Numbered from the stretch's first letter, positions 2 through 22,395 are shown. The stretch is 64,000 nucleotides of DNA from Candidatus Adlerbacteria bacterium (GCA_029288895.1 JARIGK010000001.1:65446-129445); one strand, 5' to 3'. Made by a program: numbers and translations. Notes: a model not told the origin generated them from the letters alone.

Positions 2-2761
2 ACTGCAACAACTTCAATCAACGGTGTATTGACCCAAGGTACAGGCTCAACACAAACAATCTTCCGTAACGGTAACCAGTACATTGGCGCTTCAAGCTTC
101 TTTAACCTCTCATATATTGGTAACCCGCTAACAGAAGGAAGTGGCTACCATGCAAGCGTGTTTAACAACTCGGTTGGTAACCGCGGCGAAGTATTGCAGC
201 TTGGCGGTGCGATGGGATCAAACACTGGCGTCGGTAACTTTATCGGTGCACTCTCGTTCGTAAACTCAAATTCAAGCGGCGGTAACCCTGGCCAGACCGC
301 AACAATCTACGGCTTTAACGACACAGCAGCAAACAACGGTGCGATGGCCTTCTTTACGCAAAATACAAGCGGCACTGCAACAGAAGCAATGCGCATCAAC
401 AGCAGCCAGCAGGTTGGCATTGGCACCACAACGCCTGCGGCGGCACTTGATGTGCGTGGTTCAGGCGGTAACGTTGGCATATTCGAAGCTGACGGCACTG
501 CAACCAACCCGACCCAATTACAGATCCGCGGCGTATCAAATTACAACAAAGTTTTCCAGATCGGCTACAACACAACAAATAGTTACGGTTCGCTCCAGGC
601 GCAAACGGTTGGCTCCACCTTTGACCCAATCGCCCTCAACCCATTGGGCGGCAACGTTGGTATTGGTACAACGACGCCAGGCTCTCCGTTAACTGTGTCT
701 GGTGCTGGCCTTGTCAGTACGTTTTACAATACAAACACGAGTAGTGATCAGCCGGTGCGTATGCTCCAACCAAGCCTTTCTACAGGTAATTCCACATCGC
801 TCGATATTGGTACTGCATGGAATTCAAATTACAACTCCGGTCAATTGCAGTTCACTAACGCGGGAGGTACGGGTAGTCAGTCCAATTATATTGGATTGGG
901 AGTATGGGGACAGACAAATGGTCTTATTGTGAACGGCTTCGGCAATGTTGGTATCGGTACTACATCGCCTGTTGCGACACTTGGCATGACGGGCAGCATC
1001 GGCGTTAACTCGACGCAGCTCTCTATTAATGCAAACGGTAGCGTTGGCGTAGGTACAAATACAACAAATGCGAAATTTACTATCAACGGAACCGGCGGCA
1101 ATGCATCGCACGGCGAGTTGGAAATTTCGAACACAGCCGTTACTTCGAACCTCGGCATCATAGGTATCGAAACAGGAAATAACTCATTGGCAAACGGCGG
1201 CACCTTGGGCGATCTCTCTATCATATCGGCCGGAAGCCTCATTTTGCAGGCGGGCGGCGGGGGAACGGTAAAGTTTAATAACACATCGACGGGGCAGGCT
1301 CAATTCTTCGGCTGGTCACAGCTCGACACCGACCCTAGAAGCGGCGCGATATTCGTAGGCAGCAACTCAGGATTCCGCGGAGTAATCCAATACGGTGCCA
1401 ACCCTTCAAGTTCGCTTTCTATCGACAATACCTACGACTCATCTACGGGTATTGGTATCCAATTTAGAACTCGCACCTCCGGCACCTCAACGACAACTGC
1501 AATGGCTATTCTCAACAATGGCAACATCGGTGTCGGTACAACAAACCCTGGACAGAAATTAACGGTGGCGGGCGCTGACAACTCGGCAACAGTTTCTATT
1601 GGTTTGTTCCGCAGTTCGCTTGATTATGGCCTGCTGCTGTCGACTGTCGGTAGTACAGGCAATTCAAGCATTGTTGCCTCGGGCAGCGGTTCAAGTTTGA
1701 CTCTTGGTGCAAGCGGGACCTCACCTTTTGTAATAGCTTCAAACGGCAACGTCGGTATTGGTAGTACGTCGCCTTCGCGAATAATGTCTATCCAGTCTGC
1801 AGTGTCGACTGCGCAGATGACGGTTGCATACGACACATCGCGCTACACCGACTTCCTCACAAACTCTGTGGGCGACCTTACGATCACGCCGCAGGGCCAA
1901 GACATCTTCAGCAACGACAGCAACCTCTGGATCTGTTCTGGCGGCTCGTGCCCAAGCGGTACGCCAACTGGCACCGGTAACATCATTGTCGAAAACAACA
2001 TCGGTATTGGTACTACGACGCCGAAGTATCGTCTCACTATTGAATCGCAAAACAACACTGACAACCTCTTCCAGATTGCGTCGTCGACAAACCAGAGTAT
2101 CGTCGTTGTAAACGCAAACGGCCGTGTCGGTATCGGCACCTCGACTCCAAGCCAGCAGTTCTCGGTTGCAGACCGCCTCTTCGTTGGCGCAGGCGGTGCG
2201 TCGGGTATGGGTACTGCAACGTCGACCTTCCAAGGCGACATCAAGATCACCGGTAAGCTCGACGTCGGCACCATCGACCCTGTGTACACCATCGACGGCG
2301 TGAAGTACGCAACCTACGGCCACTCGACTGTGGGCCTCAAAGAAGAAGCTGTCGCCGTACTTGAGGTGACAGATAAAAATCCAAAGACCGGCAAGTACGA
2401 AAAGAAAATCTCATTCAAAGATTTGGACAAAGGAAGCGACCTCTGGCTCTTCTACCAAGTCACTGACTTTGGTGATAATTGGAAGAACCTTGTCATCAAC
2501 CTGACGGCGTCGTTCGACGGCTCGGTCTTCTATACCAAGGTGCCGAACGAGGCAGCGGTTGTCGTTTCGGCAGACCAGCCTGGCGAAGTCTCGGCGCGCT
2601 TTATCGCAAACCGCTTCGACTCCGACAAGTGGCCGAATATTCGCCCAGACCAAAACGGGCCGTATAAGGGCCATGAGCTCCAAACTACGCCGACAGGGCA
2701 GGCAACTGCCGTGGGCAGCATAATGCCAATTCGTGCCGATGCCTTTGATCCGGCACAGTAG
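2..2761 (+). CDS. 5'-partial giant extracellular repeat protein with about 40-aa periodic G-N-V-G-I-G-T-T-x-P repeats (tail-fibre-like or beta-helical surface protein). The reading frame is open to the window edge.
   Basis: More than 15 copies of GNVGIGTTTP / GSVGVGTNTT / NIGVGTTNP / RVGIGTSTP motifs at regular spacing. Gly/Asn/Ser/Thr-rich with no Cys until the C-terminus. No stop between position 2 and the annotated TTG at 29. Confidence 0.6.
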   Translation, partial: TATTSINGVLTQGTGSTQTIFRNGNQYIGASSFFNLSYIGNPLTEGSGYHASVFNNSVGNRGEVLQLGGAMGSNTGVGNFIGALSFVNSNSSGGNPGQTATIYGFNDTAANNGAMAFFTQNTSGTATEAMRINSSQQVGIGTTTPAAALDVRGSGGNVGIFEADGTATNPTQLQIRGVSNYNKVFQIGYNTTNSYGSLQAQTVGSTFDPIALNPLGGNVGIGTTTPGSPLTVSGAGLVSTFYNTNTSSDQPVRMLQPSLSTGNSTSLDIGTAWNSNYNSGQLQFTNAGGTGSQSNYIGLGVWGQTNGLIVNGFGNVGIGTTSPVATLGMTGSIGVNSTQLSINANGSVGVGTNTTNAKFTINGTGGNASHGELEISNTAVTSNLGIIGIETGNNSLANGGTLGDLSIISAGSLILQAGGGGTVKFNNTSTGQAQFFGWSQLDTDPRSGAIFVGSNSGFRGVIQYGANPSSSLSIDNTYDSSTGIGIQFRTRTSGTSTTTAMAILNNGNIGVGTTNPGQKLTVAGADNSATVSIGLFRSSLDYGLLLSTVGSTGNSSIVASGSGSSLTLGASGTSPFVIASNGNVGIGSTSPSRIMSIQSAVSTAQMTVAYDTSRYTDFLTNSVGDLTITPQGQDIFSNDSNLWICSGGSCPSGTPTGTGNIIVENNIGIGTTTPKYRLTIESQNNTDNLFQIASSTNQSIVVVNANGRVGIGTSTPSQQFSVADRLFVGAGGASGMGTATSTFQGDIKITGKLDVGTIDPVYTIDGVKYATYGHSTVGLKEEAVAVLEVTDKNPKTGKYEKKISFKDLDKGSDLWLFYQVTDFGDNWKNLVINLTASFDGSVFYTKVPNEAAVVVSADQPGEVSARFIANRFDSDKWPNIRPDQNGPYKGHELQTTPTGQATAVGSIMPIRADAFDPAQ

Positions 2762-2781
2762 GGAGGAGTATACTAACCACT

Positions 2782-2973
2782 ATGAGACGCGTGCTCGCAT
2801 TACTCACCCCATTGTCGCTTGTAGGCATACTGAGTTTCTACGGAATCTCGTGGCTCCATGCGGCGCCAGAGCCAACGATGTGCGCAGTTACAGACCATAC
2901 TGCTTCTGCAACGGTCCCACAGGCACACACAGACGAGAGAGTTTATTTTGTTGGGTGCGGCGGGCTTTTCTAA
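2782..2973 (+). CDS. 63-aa exported or membrane-anchored small peptide (cassette 1 peptide). Hydrophobic N-terminus, conserved C-terminus ...ERVYFVGCGGLF.
   Basis: The palindromic -10 box AGTATACT lies 7 nt upstream of the ATG. The stop overlaps the next ATG (TAATG). A paralogous peptide at 14802 has the same C-terminal motif. Confidence 0.6.
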   Translation: MRRVLALLTPLSLVGILSFYGISWLHAAPEPTMCAVTDHTASATVPQAHTDERVYFVGCGGLF

Positions 2974-3422
2974 TGAGCACCAAAGACCCACGGGATTGGC
3001 GGATTGTGCCCACTGTATATAAGGAGGGGGAGTACGCAGCGCCTATTGCACGTTTTGAACGGAGCGATTTTGTATGGGAAAAACTCGGCGCAACACTCGA
3101 TGCGCACCGCCCACACGGGCTCGGTATTATGCTTTCGTTTGCATGGCAGCTCCATACGTATGCATATAACGAAGCAAACAAACGAGGTGTGGTGACTGCG
3201 GTTGCCATGCCCACCAACGTAAGCGCCTTGTCGGGGCTTATGAAATCAGTGCCTATTGATGCAGTGCTGACAACAGACGAAGGTGCGCGCGCGTTTATGG
3301 ACGATCTGCGCGAGGTAGGTATGCTCGAGCGCATCAAGGTATGGATTATCGTTTCACCCAAAGATGCGCCTAGCTCATTCACCGCACCCGTCGGTGTCAC
3401 CGTGCATGACATACTCCCATGA
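2973..3422 (+). CDS. About 150-aa protein of unknown function (cassette 1 middle gene). It is translationally coupled to the peptide upstream and the ligase downstream.
   Basis: ATG overlaps the peptide stop (TAATG). Its stop overlaps the ligase start (ATGA). About 40% identical to the 15012..15335 product (GLGI[ML]L, VxAVA[ML]P[TS]x[VI]SAL[ST]GL and IKxW[IF]IV motifs). Confidence 0.6.
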   Translation: MSTKDPRDWRIVPTVYKEGEYAAPIARFERSDFVWEKLGATLDAHRPHGLGIMLSFAWQLHTYAYNEANKRGVVTAVAMPTNVSALSGLMKSVPIDAVLTTDEGARAFMDDLREVGMLERIKVWIIVSPKDAPSSFTAPVGVTVHDILP

Positions 3423-4702
3423 ATAATCAACACGCACTTCTTCAAACAGCGCTCGACTTCGCGCTCCGAAATCCGCACTCTGATTTTTATCGTCGGAAGT
3501 TTGGCGCATCGTGGGAACAGTATTTTGGCAAGCCAATAGAAGACATTCCATTTCTGGTGCGAAAAGAAATTGATGATGCGCCGATATTTGAACGGACGTT
3601 TGTACCGCGCGAGATGGTGCGTTTTATCCGCTCGACGTCAGGCTCGAGCGGGAAACATGTGATCGGGTTCCCGATGCTTGAAGAAGGGTTGTATCAAGAA
3701 TTTTTGCGTTCTATCGGGTATACGCATACACCGGGGCAGCTCTCGCGTTACTTCGAACCATACTTTACGCAGATGAATATACGCTCGATGCTGCTCTTTT
3801 CCGCTGGCGCGTTTGTGCATGAGGCTCGCGTGCGAGACATGGAAGGAAGGCAGTGTATCGCTGGAGAATTTTCGCAACCCAAACTTACGGCACAGCTCGG
3901 TACCGAAGCCGCTGTGGATGCAATTGTCGGCAACCCAAGCGGGCTGGTCGATTTTGCTCCGCATATGCGTGCTGCCGGGGGCCATACAGGCGTCCGCCTT
4001 ATTATCTCGGTTGGTGAGCGCCCCACGGCACTCCAGTTTGAAACACTCGAGACTTCGTTCCCGAATGCAAAAATTGCATTGCAGTATGGCCTTACAGAAT
4101 CGCAAGGATATGTTGGCTATACCTGTCCAGAAAAACTAAGCGTCGACCCCAAAGCGCTGCACTTGGCAGAGGGGACCCTCTTTATGGAACTTATCGACCC
4201 GGATACCGAAGCGGTATTGCCGCTCCAGCCTGGCACCGAAGGCGAGGTGGTTATAACTACGCACGAACCGCAAGGATTCCCACTTATACGCTATCGGACC
4301 GGAGATTTTGCACGCATTCGCGAAGAGTCCTGTAGCTGTACGGGGAGCCCCTTGTTGTTTGAATGTATGGGGAGGCTCGAGCTTGATCGCGTGCGCGTCC
4401 CCAAAGGCATGCTCACGATTGCAGCAATTGAGCATGCAATTTTTGGGTTTGGCGGCGTTCGCGAATTTGAAGCGAAGTGGAATACAGACGGTGGCCTGCC
4501 TCGATTGGAGATTTCTTTATATATGGAACACCGATACGCTGCAGAACATGTTATGGCCGATGAGCTTGCGTCGCGCATCCGTATTGCGCCCACAGTAACC
4601 TACAAAACAATAGTGGACGAAGGTCGCGCACTGCCACTGTCCGTAACGATACTGCCTCCCGAACAGTGGGTCGGCTGGAAAAAGAAAAAGCGATTGCGTT
4701 AG
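3419..4702 (+). CDS. PaaK / coenzyme F390 synthetase / CapK-like adenylate-forming enzyme (ANL superfamily). Cassette 1 ligase.
   Basis: P-loop-like RSTSGSSGKHV near residue 70, a YRTGD hinge motif and a C-terminal subdomain of about 100 aa. Total length 427 aa, typical of phenylacetate-CoA ligase-like enzymes. Confidence 0.75.
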   Translation: MNNQHALLQTALDFALRNPHSDFYRRKFGASWEQYFGKPIEDIPFLVRKEIDDAPIFERTFVPREMVRFIRSTSGSSGKHVIGFPMLEEGLYQEFLRSIGYTHTPGQLSRYFEPYFTQMNIRSMLLFSAGAFVHEARVRDMEGRQCIAGEFSQPKLTAQLGTEAAVDAIVGNPSGLVDFAPHMRAAGGHTGVRLIISVGERPTALQFETLETSFPNAKIALQYGLTESQGYVGYTCPEKLSVDPKALHLAEGTLFMELIDPDTEAVLPLQPGTEGEVVITTHEPQGFPLIRYRTGDFARIREESCSCTGSPLLFECMGRLELDRVRVPKGMLTIAAIEHAIFGFGGVREFEAKWNTDGGLPRLEISLYMEHRYAAEHVMADELASRIRIAPTVTYKTIVDEGRALPLSVTILPPEQWVGWKKKKRLR

Positions 4703-5151
4703 TTCGTAAGGGGGAGTAGGTCGCCTGCAACAACGGTGTTTGCCTCAAGGCGGCTGCGCTCGAGCGAATTGGTAAATTGAATATAGATCTGTTCGCCTAT
4801 TTGAAACCCTGTTTGTTCAAGCGGCTCTACTGATACGTTAGCAATGACGCCGTCTGCTCCTGGAGTTCCATGGATGCGTGACATGGTTGCGTTCGGGGCG
4901 AGCCATATTTTTGCTGTTGCTGTTCGCCCCATGCCAGCATCATACGAAATGATCATCCACCCCGCATCGGTATTATTTTGAAGCAGCGTTGCAGATCGTC
5001 TCGTGTCTTTTATGACGCCCACTACGTTTGCTTTCGCTCTTTGAAGGTTTGGGTCTTTTGTTGCGTTGGCCTGCATAACATTGAGCGTGATGCTGCCAGC
5101 AAGCAATGCGCTCAATGCAAACAAGAAGGGCGCTGTACTTTTCTGGGTCAT
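4699..5151 (-). CDS. Secreted hypothetical protein (150 aa) with a signal peptide.
   Basis: Hydrophobic N-terminus (MTQKSTAPFLFALSALLAGSITLNVMQA). Convergent with the ligase, with a 4-nt overlap. Confidence 0.45.
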   Translation of the reverse strand: MTQKSTAPFLFALSALLAGSITLNVMQANATKDPNLQRAKANVVGVIKDTRRSATLLQNNTDAGWMIISYDAGMGRTATAKIWLAPNATMSRIHGTPGADGVIANVSVEPLEQTGFQIGEQIYIQFTNSLERSRLEANTVVAGDLLPLTN

Positions 5152-5157
5152 AGGTAG

Positions 5158-5586
5158 TTACTGAGTTGGCGATATAAATATAATCATAGCGTATGGAGTA
5201 GTATTGTTCGGGCTAAGCCACACGGTAGTGCGTATTCGCAGCCCGCTTTTTATTGTTTTTGCTGTGTCCGTTTGGAGCAGCCGCGAATCGACAATTAGTC
5301 CTTGCTCGTCTTGTGTAATAGTACGTACAAGCATGGCCGTGTCATTGTCGTAGTGGATGAGAATCGTGCGCGACACCCGGCCGGGGTACGGGTCTTCTTT
5401 CAGGAGAAATGAATCAGAGGATACCCGAGTAACAGTGCCACTGAGCGATAGCGACATACTGTGTTGCAATGTAAGTGCCGCTGCGGCGCTGCTGTTGTCG
5501 GGCAAGACTAATATCCCCATTGTTGAAGCAACAATAGCTCCAACACAGACGCCAAAGACGATCGCCAATGCTGAAGAAACATTCAT
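5158..5586 (-). CDS. Exported or membrane-anchored hypothetical protein (142 aa).
   Basis: N-terminal TM/signal segment. A TATACT -10 box lies 6 nt upstream of its ATG, on the minus strand at 5593-5598. Confidence 0.45.
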   Translation of the reverse strand: MNVSSALAIVFGVCVGAIVASTMGILVLPDNSSAAAALTLQHSMSLSLSGTVTRVSSDSFLLKEDPYPGRVSRTILIHYDNDTAMLVRTITQDEQGLIVDSRLLQTDTAKTIKSGLRIRTTVWLSPNNTTPYAMIIFISPTQ

Positions 5587-5634: not shown

Positions 5635-7089
5635 ATGCGTATAGTTCGCACGTTTCTGCCAGCACTGGCGCTCGTCCTTGTGTGCGTGGTTTACATGCTA
5701 TTGCCGTTAGCAACACAAGACGCAGGAGGCGCCCTCCTTTCATGTGCTGCTATAGGTGTCGTGTTGTTGGCCATACTGGCGTGGGGGTATGTGCCTAGCC
5801 CTCGCCACTGGCATGTATCCCAATGGCTGCTTGTGGCATGTATAGGTTCGGTTTTTGTATCTGTGCTTCTGTCAAAAAATTACGCCCATGCGTTATGGGG
5901 ATTTTCGTTCGACATGACATCCGCGTTCTTCCTTTTGTTTGTATTCGTACTCCCACTTATTGTGGGTGGGCTTCCGGTCCATGTGCGGAGAATTATTTTT
6001 TTGGCGTCTTGTGTATCGCTTGCATTGCTCTTGATATATCCGCTCGTGCGCTCGGAAGTGTATGTCCGCCCGTCGAACGATGCCACAATGGGAATTGAAG
6101 CTGCCTCGTATGCAGATGGCGGGACGCGTGCACTCCTTGTTGGTGTAGGGCCCAACTCATTTTTGTATGCCTGGCAAAAATACAGGCCAACTGCGGTACT
6201 CACAACGCCATTTTGGAATGAAGATTTTCCTGTAGGTGGTAGTGTGCTCGCAACACTCATGATCGAATGTGGCGTACTGAGTGTCTTGCTCTTGTGTCTC
6301 GCATACTTGTCTGCGTGTGCAGAGGAAGTATGGAGAAGTCTCACAGAGGAATATTCGATCATTAGAAAAAGTTTGTATACGTTGCCTGCGTGGATCGTTC
6401 TTGGCTCTTTGTTTGCTCTTATGTTTGCGGAGCCGTCGGCGCCGCTGGTGTTGGTGTGTGGAATGCTTCTTGGGTCATTTCGCTTTCATACAGAGCCACG
6501 GATTGTACTCGGCCCATGGACTCGCGGCGCAGGTGTTGTAGTGGGTGTTGCATACCTGTGCGTTGTGGCCTATATAGCAACCGCTGTTATATTTTATTTT
6601 TCTGCGTTCTCAAAAGTGCAAGCGCAAGATCTGACTTCGGCGCAACACACAGGAGAATATTCCTATCAGCTCTATAAAAATCCACAGACTGCACGATTTC
6701 TTTCGCAGACCTTCCGTTCGCTTGGTCATGAACTTGGGCGGACGCACGTAGGGCAGGACACAATCCAAGCTTCCTTCCATGCTGCGAGCGCATATGCCCG
6801 TGCAGCAACGGTGCAAGAACCACAGAATGGCCAAAATTGGAAATTGCTTGGTATCAGTCTCGCAGAAGAATTAGCGCTGCAAAAAAATGCCGCCTTTTTT
6901 AGTGAAGGTAAAAAAGCTTTTGATACAGCAGCGGTGCGTATTCCTGCTGACCCATCAATTTTCTTTTTCGAAGCCCAGCTATATATCTTGGCAGGGGACA
7001 GAGAGGGTGCAAAGTCCTTGCTTGATAAAGCGCTTGCTTTGAAGCCTGACTATACCGAAGCAAACGATCTGCGTACGGCCATACAGTAG
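5635..7089 (+). CDS. Polytopic membrane protein, O-antigen ligase/Wzy-like, with a C-terminal TPR-like region.
   Basis: At least 10 predicted TM helices followed by a soluble C-terminal helical-repeat region (KALALKPDYTEAND). A TATACT box lies 6 nt upstream of the ATG. Confidence 0.45.
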   Translation: MRIVRTFLPALALVLVCVVYMLLPLATQDAGGALLSCAAIGVVLLAILAWGYVPSPRHWHVSQWLLVACIGSVFVSVLLSKNYAHALWGFSFDMTSAFFLLFVFVLPLIVGGLPVHVRRIIFLASCVSLALLLIYPLVRSEVYVRPSNDATMGIEAASYADGGTRALLVGVGPNSFLYAWQKYRPTAVLTTPFWNEDFPVGGSVLATLMIECGVLSVLLLCLAYLSACAEEVWRSLTEEYSIIRKSLYTLPAWIVLGSLFALMFAEPSAPLVLVCGMLLGSFRFHTEPRIVLGPWTRGAGVVVGVAYLCVVAYIATAVIFYFSAFSKVQAQDLTSAQHTGEYSYQLYKNPQTARFLSQTFRSLGHELGRTHVGQDTIQASFHAASAYARAATVQEPQNGQNWKLLGISLAEELALQKNAAFFSEGKKAFDTAAVRIPADPSIFFFEAQLYILAGDREGAKSLLDKALALKPDYTEANDLRTAIQ

Positions 7090-7098
7090 GGCACTACT

Positions 7099-8643
7099 AT
7101 GAGAACAGCAGAACATCGAACGCTCTACGTCCGTATTTTTTTGAGCGCCATCTGTCTTGGTGTGTGTCTGTTGAGCGCACGAAATTATACTTCCACGCTG
7201 CCGCTTGGATATAACGTCGTACTTATAAGCATTGATAGTCTGCGCACCGATCATATGAGTTTGTACGGATATGAACGTCCGACAACCCCCACTATCGATG
7301 CGTATGCAAAGGGCGCGGCTGTATTCGACAACTATTTTTCGACGAGCATGATAACCCCGATAAGCGAGATGAGCGTACAAACAGGCACGTACCCATTTAC
7401 GAGCGGCCTCATCAATTTTGAATCCATTCTTTCTCCTAAAGTCGAAACTCTAGCCGAAGTGCTCCATGCACATGGATGGAAGACAGCGTCGTTTGGCTCT
7501 TCGGTCGAGTTCGACCTTCCGGTTTCGAAAATCGATTTCTCCAGAGGGTTTGATGCGTATGTTGGTAATGTCAATCTAAAAGAAAAACCATTGCCGTGGT
7601 TTGGGCGCAACGATTCGCATATAGATGAAGCGCTTGCGTGGGCGAGAAACGCATCATATGGCACGCAGCCGTTCTTTCTGTGGCTACGTATCGGCTCGGC
7701 TCATTGGCCGTATGGGTATGATGAACCTGCGCACGTTACGGACCCGGCCTACGATGGGCCGATGAAAGCAGACATGTCATCCCCTACAGAGCAGGAGATG
7801 ATATCTATGTTTAGCCAACGGTACGGCACTATTTGGAACGGCCGCGAGTATGGAGTGAATGCCGGCCGCAGTAGTGCAGGTGTGCAAGAAGATATTTCAT
7901 ATATTACTGATAGATATGACGATGGCATTATCAAAACAGATCGTGAGCTAGCGCCGCTTCTGGCGTTTCTTTCGCAAACGTATATCGCCGACAGAACGAT
8001 TGTCATTATTGAGTCCGAACACGGAGAAGGGTTAGGGGAAAGGGGATACGTAGCGCATTACGACATATCAGATGATGAAACTCATGTTCCACTTATTATC
8101 AAAGCACCCTTGCTGCGCCCACAAAACGTACAAGATTTGATTTCTGGCGTTGATGTATTCCCCACACTTATGGCCGCACTTCATCTTCCGCAGAAAAAAG
8201 TGGACGGGATAAATTTCCTCCCGCGGCTGTCGGGTGCATCAAGCACTACTCCACGCGGTGAGATATTTTTGACGCGCACGCCGCTGTGGGAGCGAATCTT
8301 GAGTACGGAGGTGCCGTGGCTTTTGCCGCTCGTACCCAAAGACAACGCTGCCAACTATCACGATACGGCACTACGAACAGATGAATGGAAGCTTGTGCAT
8401 CGCACTGCGCGCCAGGCAGAAGAGCAATACTCGTGGTACGGGCACATGAGCGGTGTGCCTGTCGTGCGCCCAGAGTACGAGCTGTACCACATGCCCACTG
8501 ACCCGCACGAGACTATGAATGTGTATGCAGAGTACCCACAGATCGCAGAGGCTCTCAAAGAAAAACTGCTTTCGTGGGAACGTATAACAGAGGGGCGTAG
8601 TACTATACAAATGAAACCAGGAAGCCTTCAGCCGTATTTTTAA
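7099..8643 (+). CDS. Alkaline-phosphatase-superfamily ('sulfatase-like') membrane-anchored enzyme with a Thr nucleophile motif. Likely a phosphodiesterase or phosphotransferase acting on an envelope polymer.
   Basis: N-terminal metal-binding motif ISIDSLRTDHMSLYGY. Nucleophile region ITPISEMSVQTGTYP resembles the NPP/EptA-type T-x-P...TG-x-YP motif, not the sulfatase C/S-x-P-x-R motif. Confidence 0.6.
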   Translation: MRTAEHRTLYVRIFLSAICLGVCLLSARNYTSTLPLGYNVVLISIDSLRTDHMSLYGYERPTTPTIDAYAKGAAVFDNYFSTSMITPISEMSVQTGTYPFTSGLINFESILSPKVETLAEVLHAHGWKTASFGSSVEFDLPVSKIDFSRGFDAYVGNVNLKEKPLPWFGRNDSHIDEALAWARNASYGTQPFFLWLRIGSAHWPYGYDEPAHVTDPAYDGPMKADMSSPTEQEMISMFSQRYGTIWNGREYGVNAGRSSAGVQEDISYITDRYDDGIIKTDRELAPLLAFLSQTYIADRTIVIIESEHGEGLGERGYVAHYDISDDETHVPLIIKAPLLRPQNVQDLISGVDVFPTLMAALHLPQKKVDGINFLPRLSGASSTTPRGEIFLTRTPLWERILSTEVPWLLPLVPKDNAANYHDTALRTDEWKLVHRTARQAEEQYSWYGHMSGVPVVRPEYELYHMPTDPHETMNVYAEYPQIAEALKEKLLSWERITEGRSTIQMKPGSLQPYF

Positions 8644-8648
8644 GTACT

Positions 8649-10091
8649 ATGAATCTCACGAAATTTTTCTCGACGCGGTCCGGTATACAAGTGTTAGTTG
8701 CGGTTGGTCTGTGTGTACTTGTAGGTTTTTTTATTTTTCTGGGAGAGCATAGATCTGCGTCGTCTGGCCCATCGTTTGGAGTTTGTCGCGGGTGCAACGT
8801 CCTTATCATAGGCGTTGATACACTCCGTGCTGACCGTTTGCATGTCTTTGGCTATAGCCGAAATACGACACCAACCATTGATGCCCTTGCCGCAAAAGGG
8901 TACGCCTTTTCAAATGCAATAGCGCCAGCAAGTTGGACTGTCCCTTCGTTTATGTCTATTTTTACGGGCACGTACCCTTCGGTGCATGGTGTTACAAATA
9001 AGTTTATTTCGTTTTCACAAGACCAAAAGCAACTTTCAAATTTGAAAATAACGGCTCCGCAAATCCAAACGCTTGCAGAAGTGCTCAAAGCAGAAGGCTA
9101 TGCAACGGGTGGCTTTACTGGAGACGCGGGCGTGTCGGGAAAGTTTGGATATAACCTTGGGTTTGATGCGTATACCGATGAGAAAGCGTTTGGAGGCTTA
9201 GAAAACAGCAAGAGCCACGCGTTAGCGTGGGCAGATCAGCTCGGCGACAAACATTTCTTTATGTTTTTCCACGGCTACGATTTGCATGGGCAATCGGCTC
9301 CGTCTGCTACAAACCCGTTTCTAGACTCTACGTATCACGGGCCCTACACCGGTAGTCCTCAAGAAGAATCAGTGTTGCGCGAGGGCGTGTTGACGCCCAA
9401 AGGCATCACGCTGACTCCGCAAGATGCGAAGTTTTGGAGCGATACGTATGACGGCAAAGTTGTACAGGCAGACAAAGAATTACAAACATTTTTGACAGAC
9501 ATGTCCGTGCGCGGATTGCTTAAGAACACACTCATCGTGTTGGTGTCAGACCATGGAGAGGAGTTTTATGAACACAAAGGGTTTGACCACGGACATACGC
9601 TCTATGACGAACTCGTACACGTCCCGCTTATCTTCGTTGTCCCAGGGATGCAGGGAGGCCAGATAATCAAGAGCCAAGTCAGTACCATGGATGTTATGCC
9701 GACCATCCTCTATCTCCTTGGGATTACCCCGCGCGGAGAGCTGTCCAATCAGTTGTCAGGCAGAGCGAATCTGGCATCGTACTTTACTGCCACATCAACG
9801 AAAGGGTATGACGTTTTTTCGGAAACTAACTACCGCGGGTACACCTATAAAAGGAGCGTGCGCACAGCGGATGGATGGAAGTATATTTTGACCCTCGAAA
9901 CCGGGAAAGAAGAACTATATAACCTCACTGTCGACAAAGGAGAGCATACGAATCTTGTTTTGACAGACGCAGATAAGGCAGAACAATTACGTGTTGAATT
10001 AAGGAATCATCTCGAGCAGGATCTACACTACGATATGTCGAAAACGCCAGCCGTTACATGCCTCCCTGTATATGACGGGGAATGTAAGTAA
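8649..10091 (+). CDS. Paralogous alkaline-phosphatase-superfamily enzyme with a Thr nucleophile motif, membrane-anchored.
   Basis: IIGVDTLRADRLHVFGY and SWTVPSFMSIFTGTYP motifs. It lies 6 nt after the previous paralog. Confidence 0.6.
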   Translation: MNLTKFFSTRSGIQVLVAVGLCVLVGFFIFLGEHRSASSGPSFGVCRGCNVLIIGVDTLRADRLHVFGYSRNTTPTIDALAAKGYAFSNAIAPASWTVPSFMSIFTGTYPSVHGVTNKFISFSQDQKQLSNLKITAPQIQTLAEVLKAEGYATGGFTGDAGVSGKFGYNLGFDAYTDEKAFGGLENSKSHALAWADQLGDKHFFMFFHGYDLHGQSAPSATNPFLDSTYHGPYTGSPQEESVLREGVLTPKGITLTPQDAKFWSDTYDGKVVQADKELQTFLTDMSVRGLLKNTLIVLVSDHGEEFYEHKGFDHGHTLYDELVHVPLIFVVPGMQGGQIIKSQVSTMDVMPTILYLLGITPRGELSNQLSGRANLASYFTATSTKGYDVFSETNYRGYTYKRSVRTADGWKYILTLETGKEELYNLTVDKGEHTNLVLTDADKAEQLRVELRNHLEQDLHYDMSKTPAVTCLPVYDGECK

Positions 10092-10148
10092 TCAAGAGCG
10101 TTTACAGGGCTCTTTGTGGCAGCTCCGGGTATACGGTATTCTTCTAGT

Positions 10149-10745
10149 ATGAGTACTCGTCCCATTCCTCGTCTTGTAGTCGGAGGAATACTGATGTGCC
10201 TTATATTTGCTCTCGCTCTTCAGGGTGGCGAGGCGTCTGCTGCAACACTTACGTCTCCGGTGACAGTGACAGGTAGTATTAGCGTGCTCGGCACGCTCTC
10301 CAAAGGTTCTGGTACATTCGTCATTGACCATCCGCTCGACCCTGCGAACGAATTGCTGTACCACTCCTTCGTCGAATCACCAGATGTAAAAAACCTCTAC
10401 GACGGCATCGCCACACTCGACAGCAAGGGGGAAGCGACAATTGTGTTGCCAGATTATTTTCTTGCACTCAATAAAGATTTTCGATATTTAGCAACACCCA
10501 TTGGCGCTCCTATGCCTACCTTGCATTTGGGCAAAGAGGTGGGCAAGCGCTGGTTTAATCTCTTTGGGGCAATACAATTTAAAATAACGGGTGGTGTGCC
10601 GGGCGGCCGCGTCTCATGGCAAGTCACGGGCATCCGCCACGACAAATTTATCGAGGACAATCCTATCCAGGTTGAAGTAGAAAAGACTGACGACACACTG
10701 GTAAAGAAGGGTGAATATCTTTTCCCTGAATTCTATGGACACTAA
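10149..10745 (+). CDS. Secreted protein with a conserved 'GSGTFVIDxPxDPANxLLYHSFVESPDVKN' domain (paralog 1 of 3).
   Basis: Signal/TM segment followed by the core KGSGTFVIDHPLDPANELLYHSFVESPDVKNLYDGIATLDSKGEATIVLPDYF, which is nearly identical in the next two genes. Confidence 0.55.
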   Translation: MSTRPIPRLVVGGILMCLIFALALQGGEASAATLTSPVTVTGSISVLGTLSKGSGTFVIDHPLDPANELLYHSFVESPDVKNLYDGIATLDSKGEATIVLPDYFLALNKDFRYLATPIGAPMPTLHLGKEVGKRWFNLFGAIQFKITGGVPGGRVSWQVTGIRHDKFIEDNPIQVEVEKTDDTLVKKGEYLFPEFYGH

Positions 10746-11292
10746 ACGAAACACTCTAAGAATTGGTGTAAGTATGTTAATACTGGCGATTCCCGTGCTC
10801 GCGTCTGCTGTCACCCTCACTGGAAACATACAATTTAAAGGAAATTTGGCGATAACAGGGGCGCTCTCGAAAGGCTCCGGCACCTTCGTCATCGATGATC
10901 CCATTGACCCTGCTAACAAACTGCTCTATCACTCGTTCGTCGAGTCGCCAGATGTAAAAAACATCTACGACGGCATCGCAACACTCGACAGCAAAGGGGA
11001 GGCAACTATTGTGCTGCCAGATTATTTCGATGCGTTGAACAAGGATTTTCGGTATGAATTTTTCCCGCTCGATAAGGCCGATCCAGGGCTCTATATAAAA
11101 ACTGGCGCCGACGTTGTGAAGAATCAATTTACGATTGCGGGCGGGACGCCAGGCGACCGCGTTTCGTGGCAAATCACTGGCATCCGCCACGACCCGTACA
11201 TTCTTGCGAACCCGGTTGTGGTAGAGGTTCCGAAAACCAACGATACTATTGTAAAAAAAGGCCAGTATCTATTTGAGGGGTATGAAAAATAA
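10735..11292 (+). CDS. Secreted conserved-domain protein (paralog 2 of 3).
   Basis: Same core domain with more than 85% identity over about 70 aa. The start is uncertain; either ATG 10735 or ATG 10774. Confidence 0.5.
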   Translation: MDTKRNTLRIGVSMLILAIPVLASAVTLTGNIQFKGNLAITGALSKGSGTFVIDDPIDPANKLLYHSFVESPDVKNIYDGIATLDSKGEATIVLPDYFDALNKDFRYEFFPLDKADPGLYIKTGADVVKNQFTIAGGTPGDRVSWQITGIRHDPYILANPVVVEVPKTNDTIVKKGQYLFEGYEK

Positions 11293-11986
11293 GACGATAT
11301 ATTTTTTTGCGCTTGCTTCACTTATATGTATGCCCATGGTGTGCGTGCACGCCTACGCTGAAGGCGGATATTACGGCCAAGGATATTATGAAGGGTATTA
11401 CCAAAGCTATTATCAGCCGTACTATCAGCCGTACTATCAGCCAACGTATCAAACGGTATTTACAAAAAATGCTGCTGCAAGCAAGACGGTGGCGGTTACG
11501 GGTAGCGTATCAAAAAGCTCCGGTACCTTCGTCATTGATGACCCAATCGACCCCGCTAACAAATTGCTTTACCACTCGTTCGTCGAGTCGCCTGACGTCA
11601 AAAACATCTACGATGGCATCGCAACACTCGACAGCAAGGGGGAAGCGACAATTGTGTTGCCCGATTATTTCGATGCGTTGAACAAGGATTTTAGATATCT
11701 GACGCGCCCAATTGGCGCCCCTATGCCAAACCTCTACATCAAAGATGAAGTGCACGACAACACATTTAGTATCGGTGGCGGGAGCCCTGGTGGACGTGTC
11801 TCATGGCAAGTCACTGGGATTCGCCACGATGCGTATATCGTTGCACACCCTATTGTCCCGGTGGTGGATAAAAGCAAAGACACAATCGTCGACCGTGGGA
11901 GCTATATCTATCCTGCAGGATTCACTTCATTTGGGAGTACATTCTTTGGATCTCTCTCGACGTTTTTTAATGCTATTTTCCACTAG
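11282..11986 (+). CDS. Secreted conserved-domain protein (paralog 3 of 3) with an N-terminal Tyr/Gln-rich low-complexity stretch.
   Basis: GGYYGQGYYEGYYQSYYQPYYQPYYQPTYQ followed by the same core domain. Confidence 0.5.
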   Translation: MKNKTIYFFALASLICMPMVCVHAYAEGGYYGQGYYEGYYQSYYQPYYQPYYQPTYQTVFTKNAAASKTVAVTGSVSKSSGTFVIDDPIDPANKLLYHSFVESPDVKNIYDGIATLDSKGEATIVLPDYFDALNKDFRYLTRPIGAPMPNLYIKDEVHDNTFSIGGGSPGGRVSWQVTGIRHDAYIVAHPIVPVVDKSKDTIVDRGSYIYPAGFTSFGSTFFGSLSTFFNAIFH

Positions 11987-11989
11987 CGC

Positions 11990-13177
11990 ATGAAGAAGTA
12001 TGTGCTTGTTGCGTGTGCCGGTGCGCTCCTTGTAGGAAGCGCAGCGCTGGTGTATGTAAAACACATACATACAACGCCCGAAGCATATGCCAAGAGTATT
12101 GTGGCTCGCTGCGCCAGTGCAGCCGACCGCACGCAGTGTTATGTGGACGAAGTGCCAAAACTTCTCGACCAAGGGGTAACGTTTGAACATTCGTTTGAAG
12201 TTGCGTACGACATCCAAGAACTCGACCAGACAGGCGAGTACTGCCATCGCATTGGGCACGCGCTTGGTGGGGCGGAAGTAGCAAAAGATCCTACTAAATG
12301 GAAAGAAGTTGCGCGCCGCACGCCGCTTGGCGAATGTCTTGCAGGAGGCTTGCATGGTGCGTTTGAAGAACATTTCAGTAAAGAGTCCCTTGCGCCTTCA
12401 GATATCCCAGCATTTAAACAAGAGATGCGCGGATTTTGCGATGTTCAGGCAGATATTCCATCATCGCCGGTGGATTTGACCATGTGTTCGCACGGTTTAG
12501 GCCATCTCTTTGTGTATGCAACAGCTGGAGATGTACAGGAATCGATCGACTTATGTTCTTCGATGAACTTTAAAACGGAAGGCGGCGTCACTGCAGAAGG
12601 CCAAGAGCTTTCCTGTTATGACGGTATGTTTATGCAGTTGCTTGAACCGCACGACAGTGAAGACGCAGCTCTTATTAAAGGGCATGAGCAAACAAAAGAT
12701 ACCGTGGGCGCCTACTGCAATGCATTCGCGCCGCTCGTACAAGCTGCATGTATCGCCCGAAGTGCCCCATTGTTTTATAAAGACTTAAATGCTGGTGCGC
12801 CCAAGCCGCTCGATTGCAATATGCTTGATAGCCAGCGTCGGCGTGACTCGTGCCTTTCGACACAGCTTCGTCTCTTTGCCCGTGATACGTTTTTTAACCT
12901 TGATGCCACGGACGACTACTGCGCTACCTACCCACAAAATAAACGGGGGTGGTGTTATGCGTCTGCTGGTTCGTTTGCGTTTATGTCCGGGTACGATTAC
13001 GAGCAGCCCTATCGTTTTTGTGCGCGGGCAGCAGCGCTTGGGGTTGGCGACCAATGCTATCAGACGCTTGCGAACATCATCCCTAACACATTCCGCGAAG
13101 ATGATCCGTCTCGTAAAGAGTTGTGCGAAAAGCTGCCCAGCGCTTATGTGCAGGCATGCATTGCGCAGCAGCAGTAA
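11990..13177 (+). CDS. Membrane-anchored, extracytoplasmic Cys/His-repeat protein (family member A). About 7 repeats of C-x-x-G... including C-x-HG-[LI]-GH.
   Basis: N-terminal TM segment. Motifs CHRIGHALG, CLAGGLHGAF, CSHGLGHLFVY, CYDGMFMQ and others. 16 Cys in total. Confidence 0.55.
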   Translation: MKKYVLVACAGALLVGSAALVYVKHIHTTPEAYAKSIVARCASAADRTQCYVDEVPKLLDQGVTFEHSFEVAYDIQELDQTGEYCHRIGHALGGAEVAKDPTKWKEVARRTPLGECLAGGLHGAFEEHFSKESLAPSDIPAFKQEMRGFCDVQADIPSSPVDLTMCSHGLGHLFVYATAGDVQESIDLCSSMNFKTEGGVTAEGQELSCYDGMFMQLLEPHDSEDAALIKGHEQTKDTVGAYCNAFAPLVQAACIARSAPLFYKDLNAGAPKPLDCNMLDSQRRRDSCLSTQLRLFARDTFFNLDATDDYCATYPQNKRGWCYASAGSFAFMSGYDYEQPYRFCARAAALGVGDQCYQTLANIIPNTFREDDPSRKELCEKLPSAYVQACIAQQQ

Positions 13178-18269: not shown

Positions 18270-19517
18270 GTGACTATTCCGTTGTCTATGCGCCGAGTGA
18301 CGCCGCTCATTATCTCGGTCTTTATTCTTGGCGCTACTGCGTGCTACGGCTACTACACGCACCAGAGGACGCCGTACCCGGAACTCCAAGATTTGGCGCT
18401 CCATCCGCGAAGTTTCCCCGAACTCCAAACGTATTTTAAAAATCTTGCGCAACAAAAAGGTGCGCTCTATGCATACCAAATTTTGCGCGAGGCAGAGCTG
18501 CCGCCGCAGACAGACGTGCATCTCCTTGGGCACACCGTGGGAGATGAGTTGTATAAGCAGTATGGCAAAGATGCAATTTCATATTGTACGAATGAGTTCA
18601 GGAACGCGTGCTCTCATTCTGTCGTTATCGGACTTCTTCTCGAGTACGGAACGTCGGTGCTTGATGATATTAACGAGTCATGCAAAAAAGCGCCCGGCGG
18701 TATCGGCGCCTACACAATGTGTTTCCATGGGTTAGGACATGGCGTTCTTGCGTATGAACAGTACGATTTGCCGAAGACCATCGCGCTCTGCAAAAAAATG
18801 GGAACCGCGGCATATCATAACGAAGAGTATGGGCAGTGTGTTGGTGGCGCGATTATGGAAGGGATTGCCGGGGGCGGCCACGACAGGGCCTCGTGGGAAA
18901 AAGCACGTCCGCAGTATTACACTACTCAAGATCCGCTTTCGCCATGCGACCAGAGCTATATGCCACAAGAAGTCCGTACCTTCTGTTACATCTACATCAC
19001 GCCGCATTTGGTTGAGGCCGCTGGCGGCGATATGAATCATCCAGACCCGAGCGTTTTTCCAAAAGCATTCTCGTTCTGCCGGGCACTCCCCGAATCTGAC
19101 CATAACAGGGAAGTGTGCATGAACGGGTTTGGAAAAGAATTTGTTGGATGGGCTCGCCAGAGCGACCCGCGCAGCATCACAACGCTTACTGACCAAGAAA
19201 TGGAGTTGAGTTCTTCGTGGTGTGCACTTTCGGGTACTGCCAAAGATACCCGCTACTGCTTGCAGGGTATTCAGTCATATGTGTACTGGGGTGGAGAAAA
19301 TGACCCGCGCCCATCGGTCCGTTTTTGTTCTTTGTTATATGCGCAGGATCCAGACTCTGGGTCGACCTGTTACGAAGATTTGTCGCGTCTTATCGCAAAA
19401 TATGTTGTTGATCCGGATACGCGCAAAGCAACATGCGCATTGTTGCCTGAGTCTGTGCAACACGAATGCATGACATTTAAACAAACGTGGAACGGCGAGC
19501 CCGATGTGCTGCACTGA
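18270..19517 (+). CDS. Cys/His-repeat exported protein (family member B).
   Basis: GTG start 7 nt after AGTATACT. N-terminal TM segment. Motifs CSHSVVIG, CFHGLGHGVLAY, CVGGAIMEG, CMNGFGKEF, CLQGIQSY. Confidence 0.55.
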   Translation: MTIPLSMRRVTPLIISVFILGATACYGYYTHQRTPYPELQDLALHPRSFPELQTYFKNLAQQKGALYAYQILREAELPPQTDVHLLGHTVGDELYKQYGKDAISYCTNEFRNACSHSVVIGLLLEYGTSVLDDINESCKKAPGGIGAYTMCFHGLGHGVLAYEQYDLPKTIALCKKMGTAAYHNEEYGQCVGGAIMEGIAGGGHDRASWEKARPQYYTTQDPLSPCDQSYMPQEVRTFCYIYITPHLVEAAGGDMNHPDPSVFPKAFSFCRALPESDHNREVCMNGFGKEFVGWARQSDPRSITTLTDQEMELSSSWCALSGTAKDTRYCLQGIQSYVYWGGENDPRPSVRFCSLLYAQDPDSGSTCYEDLSRLIAKYVVDPDTRKATCALLPESVQHECMTFKQTWNGEPDVLH

Positions 19518-19527
19518 TATAGCCCAC

Positions 19528-20604
19528 ATGAGCGGAGCAATTACTAGGACAAAACAGTATACGGTAGGTCTCTTGTGTATAGCGCTTGTCGTATGCGCAG
19601 GGCTACTGCTGTATTCGAGATCTGCCGCCGCATCTCTACCAACGTTTGATTTACATACGCACGATGGTCTCGTGCAAGCAGAATCATTCTGGAACAAAGA
19701 GATTGCGCGTGTTGGCGGAGAAAAAGCGTACACTGAATTTCTCGAATTCTACGCAACTTCGACGCCTCAAGATCAGCATACTGCTGCGCATATCTTTGGC
19801 GGCAGTTTATTTACAGACGAAGGAGTGCCCGGGCTCGCGGTGTGTGACACATCTTTTTCGTACGGCTGTTTCCACGAATTCCTCGCGCGCGCGATACAGC
19901 AAAACGGACTCGGCAGCGTCGACATGCTTAACGAAGCGTGTTTCCAAGCGCTGGGGCCGGGGAAGTCACTTTCCTGCGCGCATGGGTTAGGCCACGGGAT
20001 TCAGTCGTACCTTGGATACAATAACGACGCGCTCAAAAAAAGCTTAGGTATTTGTAAAACTTTGCCGTACGGCGACCCAATAGGAGGCTGTCCAGGCGGC
20101 GTATTTATGGAATTCAATATGCGTACGATGGGATCTACGTCGGGCATTCCGACGCGGCCACTTGAGCCGGGTGGTTGGTACTATCCATGCAACACCTTAT
20201 CCGTTGACGACAAAGCAGTCTGCTACTACTGGCAAACACAGTGGTGGGCACAGGTTTTGAAAGGGCAAGGAAAGAATACGGATGAGTCGTTTGTAACGAT
20301 GGGGAGATTATGCGAAAGTATTTCTTCTTCGTATCGAGAAAAGTGTTTTTCCGGTATTGGCACCCTTATAGGCATTGATTCAGATTTTGATGTTGAGAAA
20401 GCAGGTACGTTATGCAGAGAAACCTCTCCTCTAGAAAGTCAGCAGAATGTGTGTCTTATAACCGGCGCAAGCTCTTTTTTTGCTGAGCCTACAGCCCGAG
20501 CTCGAGCGTCAGGTGTGTGCTTGAATATTGCAGAACCCTGGTACACGCGTTGTGTGCGATCTTCTTTAGGAAAATCAGAAGTACCGCCCCCTATGGGAGA
20601 TTAA
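19528..20604 (+). CDS. Cys/His-repeat exported protein (family member C).
   Basis: CAHGLGHGIQSY, CPGGVFMEF, CFSGIGTLIG. TGATAT -10-like box 7 nt upstream of ATG 19528. Confidence 0.55.
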   Translation: MSGAITRTKQYTVGLLCIALVVCAGLLLYSRSAAASLPTFDLHTHDGLVQAESFWNKEIARVGGEKAYTEFLEFYATSTPQDQHTAAHIFGGSLFTDEGVPGLAVCDTSFSYGCFHEFLARAIQQNGLGSVDMLNEACFQALGPGKSLSCAHGLGHGIQSYLGYNNDALKKSLGICKTLPYGDPIGGCPGGVFMEFNMRTMGSTSGIPTRPLEPGGWYYPCNTLSVDDKAVCYYWQTQWWAQVLKGQGKNTDESFVTMGRLCESISSSYREKCFSGIGTLIGIDSDFDVEKAGTLCRETSPLESQQNVCLITGASSFFAEPTARARASGVCLNIAEPWYTRCVRSSLGKSEVPPPMGD

Positions 20605-21874: not shown

Positions 21875-22393
21875 ATGAAAAAATTCTGGACTCTGTTGCT
21901 GTGGAGCGCGGTCTGCTTGCCGCTTGCTGTCTCTGCGCATAACACCGGCCGGTCATTCGAGAAGCAGATCGGCAACTACCTTGTTGATATTGGCTATAAC
22001 GTCGAGACTGAAATAGTCGCTGGCGAACCAGTCTATTTTGATTATGAGCTGTATCAGCGCGAACCAGCCCCGGGCGATGCTGCATATAGCGATGTGTGGG
22101 TGCGTATCTCACAAGCCAGCACGACGCTTTTTGCAACTGGCATTGCGCACATGACGTCTGGGCAGACAGGAATGATGTACACCTTTGATAGGCCCGGAAC
22201 ATACACTATGAGTGTCCGATATGAGCGGGGAGATACAACGCTTGCCGAAACGTCATTTCCGCTGGAAGTTGCGCCGGGAGGCCCTGCATCACCATCAGTC
22301 CCATATCCGACCCTCCTCATAGGGGCAGTAATTCTTTTGTGTGGAACGGTATTTCTCCTCTATAAGCAGAGGCGAGCGCGTGCTATCGTGTAG
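21875..22393 (+). CDS. Small exported protein with a signal peptide, a beta-sandwich-sized domain and a C-terminal TM anchor. The mature N-terminus is predicted to begin with His (CopC/YcnI-like architecture).
   Basis: Predicted cleavage LAVSA|HNTG. A domain of about 110 aa follows, then LLIGAVILLCGTVFLLYKQRRAR. Confidence 0.4.
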   Translation: MKKFWTLLLWSAVCLPLAVSAHNTGRSFEKQIGNYLVDIGYNVETEIVAGEPVYFDYELYQREPAPGDAAYSDVWVRISQASTTLFATGIAHMTSGQTGMMYTFDRPGTYTMSVRYERGDTTLAETSFPLEVAPGGPASPSVPYPTLLIGAVILLCGTVFLLYKQRRARAIV

Positions 22394-22395
22394 GT

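Follow-up and report, generated by a model that had tools for sequence, protein, structure and literature searches.

The window analysed here is a 64,000-nt stretch of a Candidatus Adlerbacteria genome (GCA_029288895.1, JARIGK010000001.1:65446-129445). It carries two copies of a cassette in which a gene for a small, putatively exported peptide is followed by a short middle gene, here called the pseudo-ligase gene, and then by a gene for a PaaK-like ANL adenylating enzyme, the ligase (Table 1). The initial annotation described the three open reading frames (ORFs) of copy 1 as one coupled unit, and all are present as claimed: the TAA of the peptide gene shares one base with the ATG of the middle ORF (TAATG), the TGA of the middle ORF overlaps the ligase ATG (ATGA), and the ligase contains TSGSSGK and YRTGD. 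That three-gene view held for genes that are real and coupled, but it missed a fourth core part, a ~540-residue protein that is predicted to be extracytoplasmic.

Table 1. Cassette genes, partner genes and associated features in the window
Feature	Position	Strand	Remarks
Promoter-like site TTGATC-18-TATACT	2745..2774	+	Sole promoter-like match in 2600-5200
Precursor peptide, copy 1, 63 aa	2782..2973	+	Predicted N-terminal signal/anchor, Cys34, C-terminal motif with Cys -5
Pseudo-ligase, copy 1, 149 aa	2973..3422	+	hhalign match to ligase N-domain; no Pfam/NCBIfam match
PaaK-like ANL adenylating enzyme, copy 1, 427 aa	3419..4702	+	P-loop, YRTGD, Lys422, Cys236/Cys305
Precursor peptide, copy 2, 66 aa	14802..15002	+	Ends DRVYNIWCGGVF
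Pseudo-ligase, copy 2, 107 aa	15012..15335	+	
PaaK-like ligase, copy 2, 428 aa	15332..16618	+	ATGA overlap with pseudo-ligase
~540-aa partner, 531 aa	13184..14779	-	N-terminal transmembrane helix, four invariant Cys
Second ~540-aa partner, 546 aa	16615..18255	-	Convergent with ligase copy 2, 4-nt overlap
Two small membrane-anchored proteins, 150 and 142 aa	4699..5586	-	Convergent with ligase; module membership uncertain
Cys/His-rich membrane-anchored helical-repeat protein	11990..13177	+	One of four window paralogues
Three further Cys/His-rich paralogues	18270-19517, 19504-20604, 20611-21846	+	

The TATACT box of copy 1 ends 7 nt (2775-2781) ahead of the peptide ATG, and in 6/6 close loci (window copies 1 and 2, L005, L006, L007 and L003/L004; L numbers denote loci) the peptide ATG is preceded, at 7-14 nt, by a TATACT -10-like box. 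The peptide gene probably comes first in its transcription unit, on an mRNA with a very short leader or none. Among the same six loci the codons for conserved C-terminal residues differ synonymously (Arg AGA/CGG/CGA/AGG, Val GTT/GTA/GTC, Gly GGC/GGG/GGA, Cys TGC/TGT), which points to selection on the protein sequence of the peptide. Two antisense ORFs (2888-3478 and 3748-4026, both on the minus strand) also cluster across loci, yet they are shadow ORFs kept by sense-strand conservation and were not taken as genes. Rfam and tRNA scans returned nothing near the cassette.

The copy-1 peptide (MRRVLALLTPLSLVGILSFYGISWLHAAPEPTMCAVTDHTASATVPQAHTDERVYFVGCGGLF, 63 residues, beginning MRRVLALL) has a predicted N-terminal signal or anchor segment, MRRVLALLTPLSLVGILSFYGISWLHA, an internal cysteine, Cys34, and the C-terminal motif RVYFVGCGGLF with a cysteine at position -5; it ends ERVYFVGCGGLF. 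The peptides of the two copies are 33% identical, chiefly through residues of the signal-like N-terminus and of the C-terminal motif R-V-Y-x-x-x-C-G-G-x-F; identity is 42% between the ligases and 47% between the middle proteins, the latter over 96 residues. No Pfam, NCBIfam or PADLOC family was found for the copy-1 peptide, Pfam giving one weak match of transmembrane (TM) type only.

We searched for similar peptides in 79 genome loci and 80 metagenome loci around ligase homologues, plus look-ups, requiring a small ORF with an N-terminal hydrophobic segment and the C-terminus C-[GASN]-[GASN]-x-[FYWLIVM], with an optional final E, Q, D or N. The metagenome loci, which among the matches listed were mostly generic PaaK-like, were used as a negative control; they contributed L085, L087, L091 and L097. 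Peptides with both the motif and a TM segment gave 31 matches in 30 family loci (360 kb). The remaining 136 PaaK-like loci, with 8,588 small ORFs in 1.18 Mb, gave 3, namely L028 twice and L091 (...FSGCNSIL), and since all three are evident family members, false positives were effectively zero. The initial annotation had allowed that peptide ORFs might not be conserved at homologous loci. They are: ~30 distinct peptides of 60-85 residues adjoin this ligase clade across two phyla, none being found at ~133 other PaaK-like loci, and by this survey the motif-bearing peptides are specific to the clade.

In ~25 distinct peptides the cysteine is placed exactly 5 residues before the stop codon, which follows directly on the motif. 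Invariant in the family are this Cys -5, two small or polar residues next to it and two hydrophobic terminal residues, and an F or Y usually stands three residues before the cysteine. Examples are VYFMGCGGFF, IHFAGCAGFF, IFFLTCGGIY, IYFVSCGGTF, VFFVSCGSFF, VYVAGCSGLF, LFIGCNGFF, RFIGCNNMF, HFSGCSSLI and NFPGCNSIL. The Gly-Gly and the terminal Phe singled out as key features by the initial annotation are thus not universal, NS, SS, NN, NG, AG, SG and GS also occurring at the former position and Y, I and L at the latter. A GG tag like that of ThiS or ubiquitin was rejected, because the GG is not conserved, is followed by two residues, and stands on a peptide with an export signal. Nearly all family peptides have one further cysteine, 19-36 residues from the C-terminus. 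It is not a lipobox cysteine; it lies 8-25 residues past the hydrophobic segment, and the residues preceding it are unlike L-[AS]-[GA]-C. One marine metagenome-assembled genome (MAG), L028, encodes identical 69-residue family peptides (...VTFSGCNSIL) at 2822-3031 and 4243-4452, 1.4 kb apart.

The ligase was correctly recognised as a PaaK-like enzyme with intact motifs. Its P-loop TSGSSGK occupies residues 72-78, S74 and G75 being conserved in 31 homologues, and the hinge R291-Y-R-T-G-D296 is invariant or nearly so in the same alignment; the Y-G-x-T-E region is present as well. The terminal lysine, K422, is invariant and is a candidate equivalent of the A10 catalytic Lys, in a C-terminal domain that aligned to neither PDB nor Pfam models. 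A profile of the 31 homologues matched solved PaaK structures (4r1l at 6e-37, 2y27 at 2e-30, also 9s3l and 2y4o) and the PaaK-like ligases AjiA1 (6wuq) and 6siw, the E values ranging overall from 1e-22 to 6e-37. Family models were matched far less well. Pfam gave only a sub-threshold AMP-binding match. The best NCBIfam match, NF045666 (DVU_1553 family), covered the model in part and scored 101.8 bits against a cut-off of 300, and the PaaK equivalogs TIGR02155 and NF041878 scored 49.7 against 646 and 59.8 against 700 bits. Close relatives are 17 proteins at 38-100% identity, all from MAGs of the Candidate Phyla Radiation (CPR) type, followed by distant ones at 25-30%. We take the ligase to be a diverged PaaK-like ANL enzyme, probably active, and not a PaaK ortholog. 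It shares the superfamily and domain plan of PaaK, but differs in its low equivalog scores, in its diverged C-terminal domain, in having no paa genes in the cassette neighbourhood, and in being paired with a ribosomal peptide and with an apparently dead paralogue of its own N-domain.

That paralogue is the middle protein, which the initial annotation had left as an unknown protein of 150 residues. It has 149 residues, and profile-profile comparison of the two families (hhalign) aligned it to ligase residues ~63-212 with a probability of 98.7% and an E value of 2e-16. The P-loop position reads v-P-T-s-F-d-p, and the hinge motif, the C-terminal domain and its lysine are all missing, so that by sequence this is a paralogue of the ligase N-terminal domain, cut short and catalytically dead; this paralogy also ruled out an RRE (RiPP recognition element) or ACT domain. 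It is probably a non-catalytic partner or a peptide-docking subunit. Distant CPR loci have a gene of 240-310 codons upstream of the ligase whose product aligns in its N-terminal part with the window middle proteins and ends in ANL-like fashion (...LPLxRY...C-x-C-G-K). No Pfam, NCBIfam or PADLOC match was found for either window pseudo-ligase.

A cysteine triad in the ligase (Cys236, Cys305 and Cys307; Y-T-C-P ... C-S-C) is kept in peptide-associated ligases. It is mirrored in the C-terminal C-x-C-G-K of the long pseudo-ligases, and 9s3l, a PaaK of solved structure, has the C-x-C too. In L164 and L165, where no peptide was detected, the ligases lack the triad. The triad could be a structural metal site or a functional tie to the peptide.

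Orthologous cassettes are found in other CPR genomes, and the module as a whole occurs in MAGs of the Paceibacteria type, within Patescibacteria/CPR, and in at least one MAG of the Alphaproteobacteria. Gene order varies. The window order is peptide, pseudo-ligase, ligase; in L010, L011, L012, L015 and L046 the peptide gene directly follows the ligase gene, and in L009, L013 and L018 it is on the opposite strand. A canonical operon of pseudo-ligase, ligase, peptide and ~540-residue protein is seen in L046, L167 and L168, and in the latter two the peptide gene overlaps the ~540-residue gene. Peptide and ligase genes are present in a roughly 1:1 ratio per locus; relatives hold up to three peptides, and the window genome has its two module copies in a large island of cell-surface genes. 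The alphaproteobacterial instance (L019 5266-8808, Amylibacter sp. MAG, OZ253460.1) comprises a peptide ending KFSGCGGVI, a 171-residue pseudo-ligase, a ligase and a 531-residue partner, and may reflect horizontal transfer. Its neighbours encode a large secreted protein of haemagglutinin type and a membrane protein that resembles spermidine synthase.

Five peptides form a second class, with the cysteine at -6, and end ...F-V-[SG]-C-G-G-F-[FIL]-[E/Q/D]. Four of the five directly precede a distinct ANL gene of ~370 codons whose product has the P-loop TSGTTGG (L013, L015, L018 and L012c). No other evidence available speaks as strongly for the ligase reading the peptide C-terminus as this covariation of peptide class with ligase class. 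Because the peptides stay with the clade through rearrangements of gene order and the classes co-vary, a functional link between ligase and peptide centred on the C-terminus is well supported by comparative genomics. The basis is what was observed of gene content, homologies, co-occurrence, and the conservation and position of the motif. A known pathway of the capsule or F390-like kind had been named as the alternative setting; the link could not be attributed to either of these or to a known paa pathway.

The ~540-residue protein was found by ORF clustering in 11 of 21 loci, including Amylibacter, and both window genes for it flank cassette copy 2. No Pfam, NCBIfam or PADLOC family was found for it, and its AlphaFold2 model, although confident, had no structural relative detected in the PDB. 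Word-indexed searches with a single sequence or a 15-sequence alignment recovered 3 proteins only, whereas an exhaustive hidden Markov model (HMM) search gave 534 family representatives (50%-identity clusters, E <= 1e-3). Five distant contexts were sampled from these (L164-L168); pseudo-ligase and ligase genes were beside the ~540-residue gene in all five, and the peptide was also present in three. We interpret this membrane-anchored, putatively extracytoplasmic protein as the fourth core component of the module.

One branch of loci differs in content. In L014 (7223-8818), L016 (7193-8782), L020 (7242-10387), L031 (7125-8606) and L097 (6180-7643), a gene like lnt (LNT_N plus CN_hydrolase domains) overlaps or abuts the ligase gene, with a 7-nt gap in L097 and two copies in L020, and these five loci are without pseudo-ligase and ~540-residue protein. 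A peptide ending ...GCNSIL or ...GCSSLI lies near the Lnt-like gene in L014, L016, L031 and L097; none was found in L020. This branch ties the peptides to a thioester-forming extracytoplasmic acyltransferase. Elsewhere, ABC-importer genes (permease and/or ATPase) were noted near the module in L023 (7226-9675), L164 (5485-7707), L165 (2224-5104) and L167 (1477-3642). For the binding-protein-like gene beside the importer, scanned in L023, L164 and L165, there was a clear NMT1 match in L023 only, a marginal one in L165, and no match in L164. No such importer was seen among the window island ORFs examined.

We propose that both window copies are instances of a conserved peptide-modification module in which the ligase makes a five-residue C-terminal thiolactone on a peptide that is then exported, a reading to which we give a probability of about 40%. 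The cytoplasmic ligase would use ATP to adenylate the free C-terminal carboxylate of the peptide; the Cys -5 thiol would attack the acyl-adenylate to close a five-residue thiolactone with the geometry of a staphylococcal autoinducing peptide (AIP); and a Sec-type signal would carry the modified peptide over the membrane, where the ~540-residue partner would bind or process it. An ATP-dependent activator would be needed because the peptides end at the ring residue, with no cleavable tail. The peptide as ligase substrate, the site and type of the chemistry, the export and the roles of the partners are what we infer from the comparisons above.

Several points weigh against this proposal. Our literature searches found no ANL or PaaK enzyme acting on ribosomal peptides, and we know of no ANL enzyme that adenylates a ribosomal peptide C-terminus. 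The C-terminal domain of the ligase is too diverged for Pfam AMP-binding_C_2. The Cys -6 variants misfit a strict five-residue ring. The internal cysteine is unexplained by a thiolactone alone, and could instead simply pair with Cys -5 in a disulfide once the peptide is exported. In L164 and L165, ligase, pseudo-ligase and ~540-residue protein occur without a peptide in the 9-14 kb read; importers near the module in four loci hint at a small-molecule substrate; and passage of a thiolactone-bearing peptide through Sec is an assumption.

An extension of the proposal would have the thioester made with ATP inside the cell, exported, and used to drive a ligation outside, where there is no ATP, which we regard as a distinctly unlikely elaboration. 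In a cyclisation variant, the leader would be cut just before the internal cysteine, which would attack the thiolactone and, after an S-to-N shift, leave a head-to-tail ring of ~20-36 residues; both conserved cysteines would then be explained. In a transfer variant, the ~540-residue protein or the Lnt-like Cys acyltransferase would move the peptide C-terminus onto a surface amine. Native chemical ligation, the reaction of the cyclisation variant, has been shown on a small scale for clostridial AIPs (PMC8251862).

Other explanations put the chemistry elsewhere. That the peptide ORF is a chance or untranslated one might be suspected from its shortness and its want of a database family, and is effectively refuted by ~30 diverged homologues of the same architecture, the synonymous codon variation, the upstream -10-like box and the absence of false positives in 1.18 Mb of controls. 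PaaK-type enzymes usually adenylate small acids and pass them to thiols, and the ligase could do just this, activating an aromatic or fatty acid and transferring it, as LuxE does, to the conserved cysteine of the peptide, which would be exported as an acyl thioester. The small residues flanking the cysteine (G/S/N/A), together with it the best-conserved feature of the peptides, would let its thiol reach the active site like a pantetheine arm, and the Cys -6 variants are easier to accommodate. Distant ligase homologues with LuxE-family Pfam matches (P0045; PF04443), the coupling of Lnt-like acyltransferases to the ligase in one branch and the four loci with importers also fit. Such S-acylation gives no reason for a motif fixed precisely at the stop codon or for the pairing of a one-residue extension with another ligase class, and there is no candidate acid or acid-supplying gene in the window; we consider it rather unlikely.

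We hold a similarly low opinion of the idea that ligase and pseudo-ligase act on a metabolite in a small-molecule pathway, the peptide being a bystander that is merely co-regulated as a companion of the ~540-residue protein. The gene overlap in L167 and L168 ties the peptide to that protein, L164 and L165 have the remaining three genes with no recognisable peptide, and importer genes are near the module in L023, L164, L165 and L167. But a bystander would not be expected to co-vary in class with the ligase, the ligase-peptide pair persists without ~540-residue protein and pseudo-ligase in L014, L016, L017, L031 and L097, and no metabolic genes are consistently beside the ligase. Quite improbable, in our estimate, is intermolecular conjugation or tagging, with the adenylated C-terminus passed to CoA or to an amine on a lipid, the cell wall or a protein. 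It shares the co-occurrence and C-terminus evidence with the thiolactone proposal, and the ligase profile matches AjiA1 (6wuq) and the PaaK-like ligase 6siw, which we take to form ester or amide bonds without CoA. It does not explain an invariant cysteine at a fixed distance from the C-terminus, and with an exported peptide and a cytoplasmic ligase the acceptor would have to be cytoplasmic and co-exported.

The thiolactone proposal invites comparison with the Agr system. AgrD has a C-terminal tail, and cleavage of this tail by AgrB supplies the energy for ring closure; the window precursor ends at the ring residue with no C-terminal recognition tail, and an ATP-dependent ligase would take the place of AgrB. 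The window peptide family also has a longer stretch from signal to ring and an extra conserved cysteine. What is alike is a small precursor with an N-terminal membrane-targeting segment and a cysteine five residues before the carboxyl that closes, or here would close, the ring, and this is a resemblance only. The pentapeptides CGGLF, CSSLI, CNGFF and CSGLF resemble the AIP rings CSSLF and CASYF, from the attested sequences GVNACSSLF and DSVCASYF (PMC5762210), in size and in having small or polar residues ahead of two hydrophobic ones. An AIP ring spans the stretch from an internal cysteine to the carboxylate at the C-terminus (PMC13056109). Pfam gave no match to AgrD for the peptide and none to AgrB among the island proteins scanned, a scan that covered part of the window ORFs and returned only TPR, sulfatase and surface-Ig families; AgrC/A-type genes were not specifically searched.

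Similar logic is known from enzymes of the ThiF/E1-like fold (GrcB for a thiolactone, EnfB for a C-terminal imide, MccB), in that a carboxylate is adenylated and then captured intramolecularly. The ThiF-like GrcB forms a peptide thiolactone via adenylation, and the group that EnfB adenylates is the carboxylate at the C-terminus of a peptide (PMC12250964). Their fold is unrelated to that of ANL enzymes, they have RRE domains where the pseudo-ANL protein is the candidate docking subunit here, and their precursors are not described there with Sec signal peptides; no ThiF domain was matched in any cassette protein. Among peptides that ribosomes make and that are modified after translation (RiPPs), those made by MNIO enzymes (chryseobasins, bufferins, DybA) have a precursor with a signal for signal peptidase I or II (SPI/SPII) and a conserved C-terminal Cys motif that receives its modification in the cytoplasm, ahead of export (PMC13056109). 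The window peptides likewise combine a predicted signal with a conserved C-terminal Cys motif; MNIO enzymes differ in being iron oxidases with other chemistry, and no MNIO or DUF692 gene was among the proteins scanned. LuxE, a PaaK-like fold, takes an adenylated acyl group and passes it to the thiol of a protein cysteine. The protein acylated is LuxE itself, which acts together with LuxC/D to make aldehyde, whereas here the cysteine is on a separate, putatively exported peptide and no lux genes are at the module.

RiPP clusters are recognised by a short precursor gene that lies beside, and is conserved together with, a candidate modifying enzyme, and this arrangement is present here. The initial annotation knew of no described class combining a PaaK-like enzyme with such peptides, and we found none: taken whole, the module has no counterpart among the families of Pfam 2025, NCBIfam 2026 or PADLOC or in any paper that we found. 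If the C-terminus is activated as proposed, the ANL/PaaK fold would join the enzymes that modify ribosomal peptides, there would be an AgrB-independent, ATP-driven route to AIP-like thiolactones, and precursor peptide, pseudo-ANL protein and ~540-residue partner would be three new protein families. If the thioester is in addition exported for ligation, this would be a new use of an ANL enzyme, and CPR bacteria would have their first described system for peptide modification. Genomes of CPR/Patescibacteria are very small and encode little biosynthesis, yet two copies of the module are retained here; their being kept in an island of surface genes implies a cell-surface function of importance, possibly in host-cell contact.

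Other genes of the island recur at related loci. The 150- and 142-residue membrane-anchored proteins (Table 1), for which no Pfam or PADLOC match was found, have counterparts on the downstream side of the ligase gene in L005 and L007, each cluster comprising 3 loci. Cys/His-rich helical-repeat proteins often neighbour the module; they too gave no Pfam, NCBIfam or PADLOC family. Directly upstream of copy 1, 29-2761 encodes the C-terminal 910 residues of a surface-type protein of very large size, in which G-I-G-T-[ST]-[ST]-P units recur and for which Pfam gave no match, and orthologs are at the same position in L005 (1,305-residue ORF) and L001/L002/L006 (1,600 residues called in L002). Between the copies, 5635-7089 encodes a polytopic membrane protein of 484 residues that has TPR repeats at its C-terminus, resembles an O-antigen ligase by eye only, and is kept in L005 and L006. 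It is followed by a tandem pair of the sulfatase/alkaline-phosphatase superfamily (7099-10091; Pfam Sulfatase, E 5e-35 and 1e-40), and paralogous sulfatase pairs are near the module in L005, L008 and L009 as well.

Three tandem paralogous secreted proteins come next (10116-10745, 10711-11292 and 11273-11986). All three contain the block GSGTFVIDxPxDPANKLLYHSFVESPDVKNIYDG...LPDYF..LNKDFRY, a Tyr-rich YYQ repeat is present in the third, and the triplet, which has no Pfam or PADLOC match, is also found in L003, L005, L006 and L165. The PADLOC anti-phage defence models had no match among eight island proteins. A 172-residue secreted protein and a 314-residue protein with a Bact_surface_Ig-like domain lie at 21875-23340, and a pair of the same type ends the island in L003/L004. 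Beyond ~23.3 kb the window continues with housekeeping genes (GAPDH, transketolase, PfkB kinase and class II aldolase).

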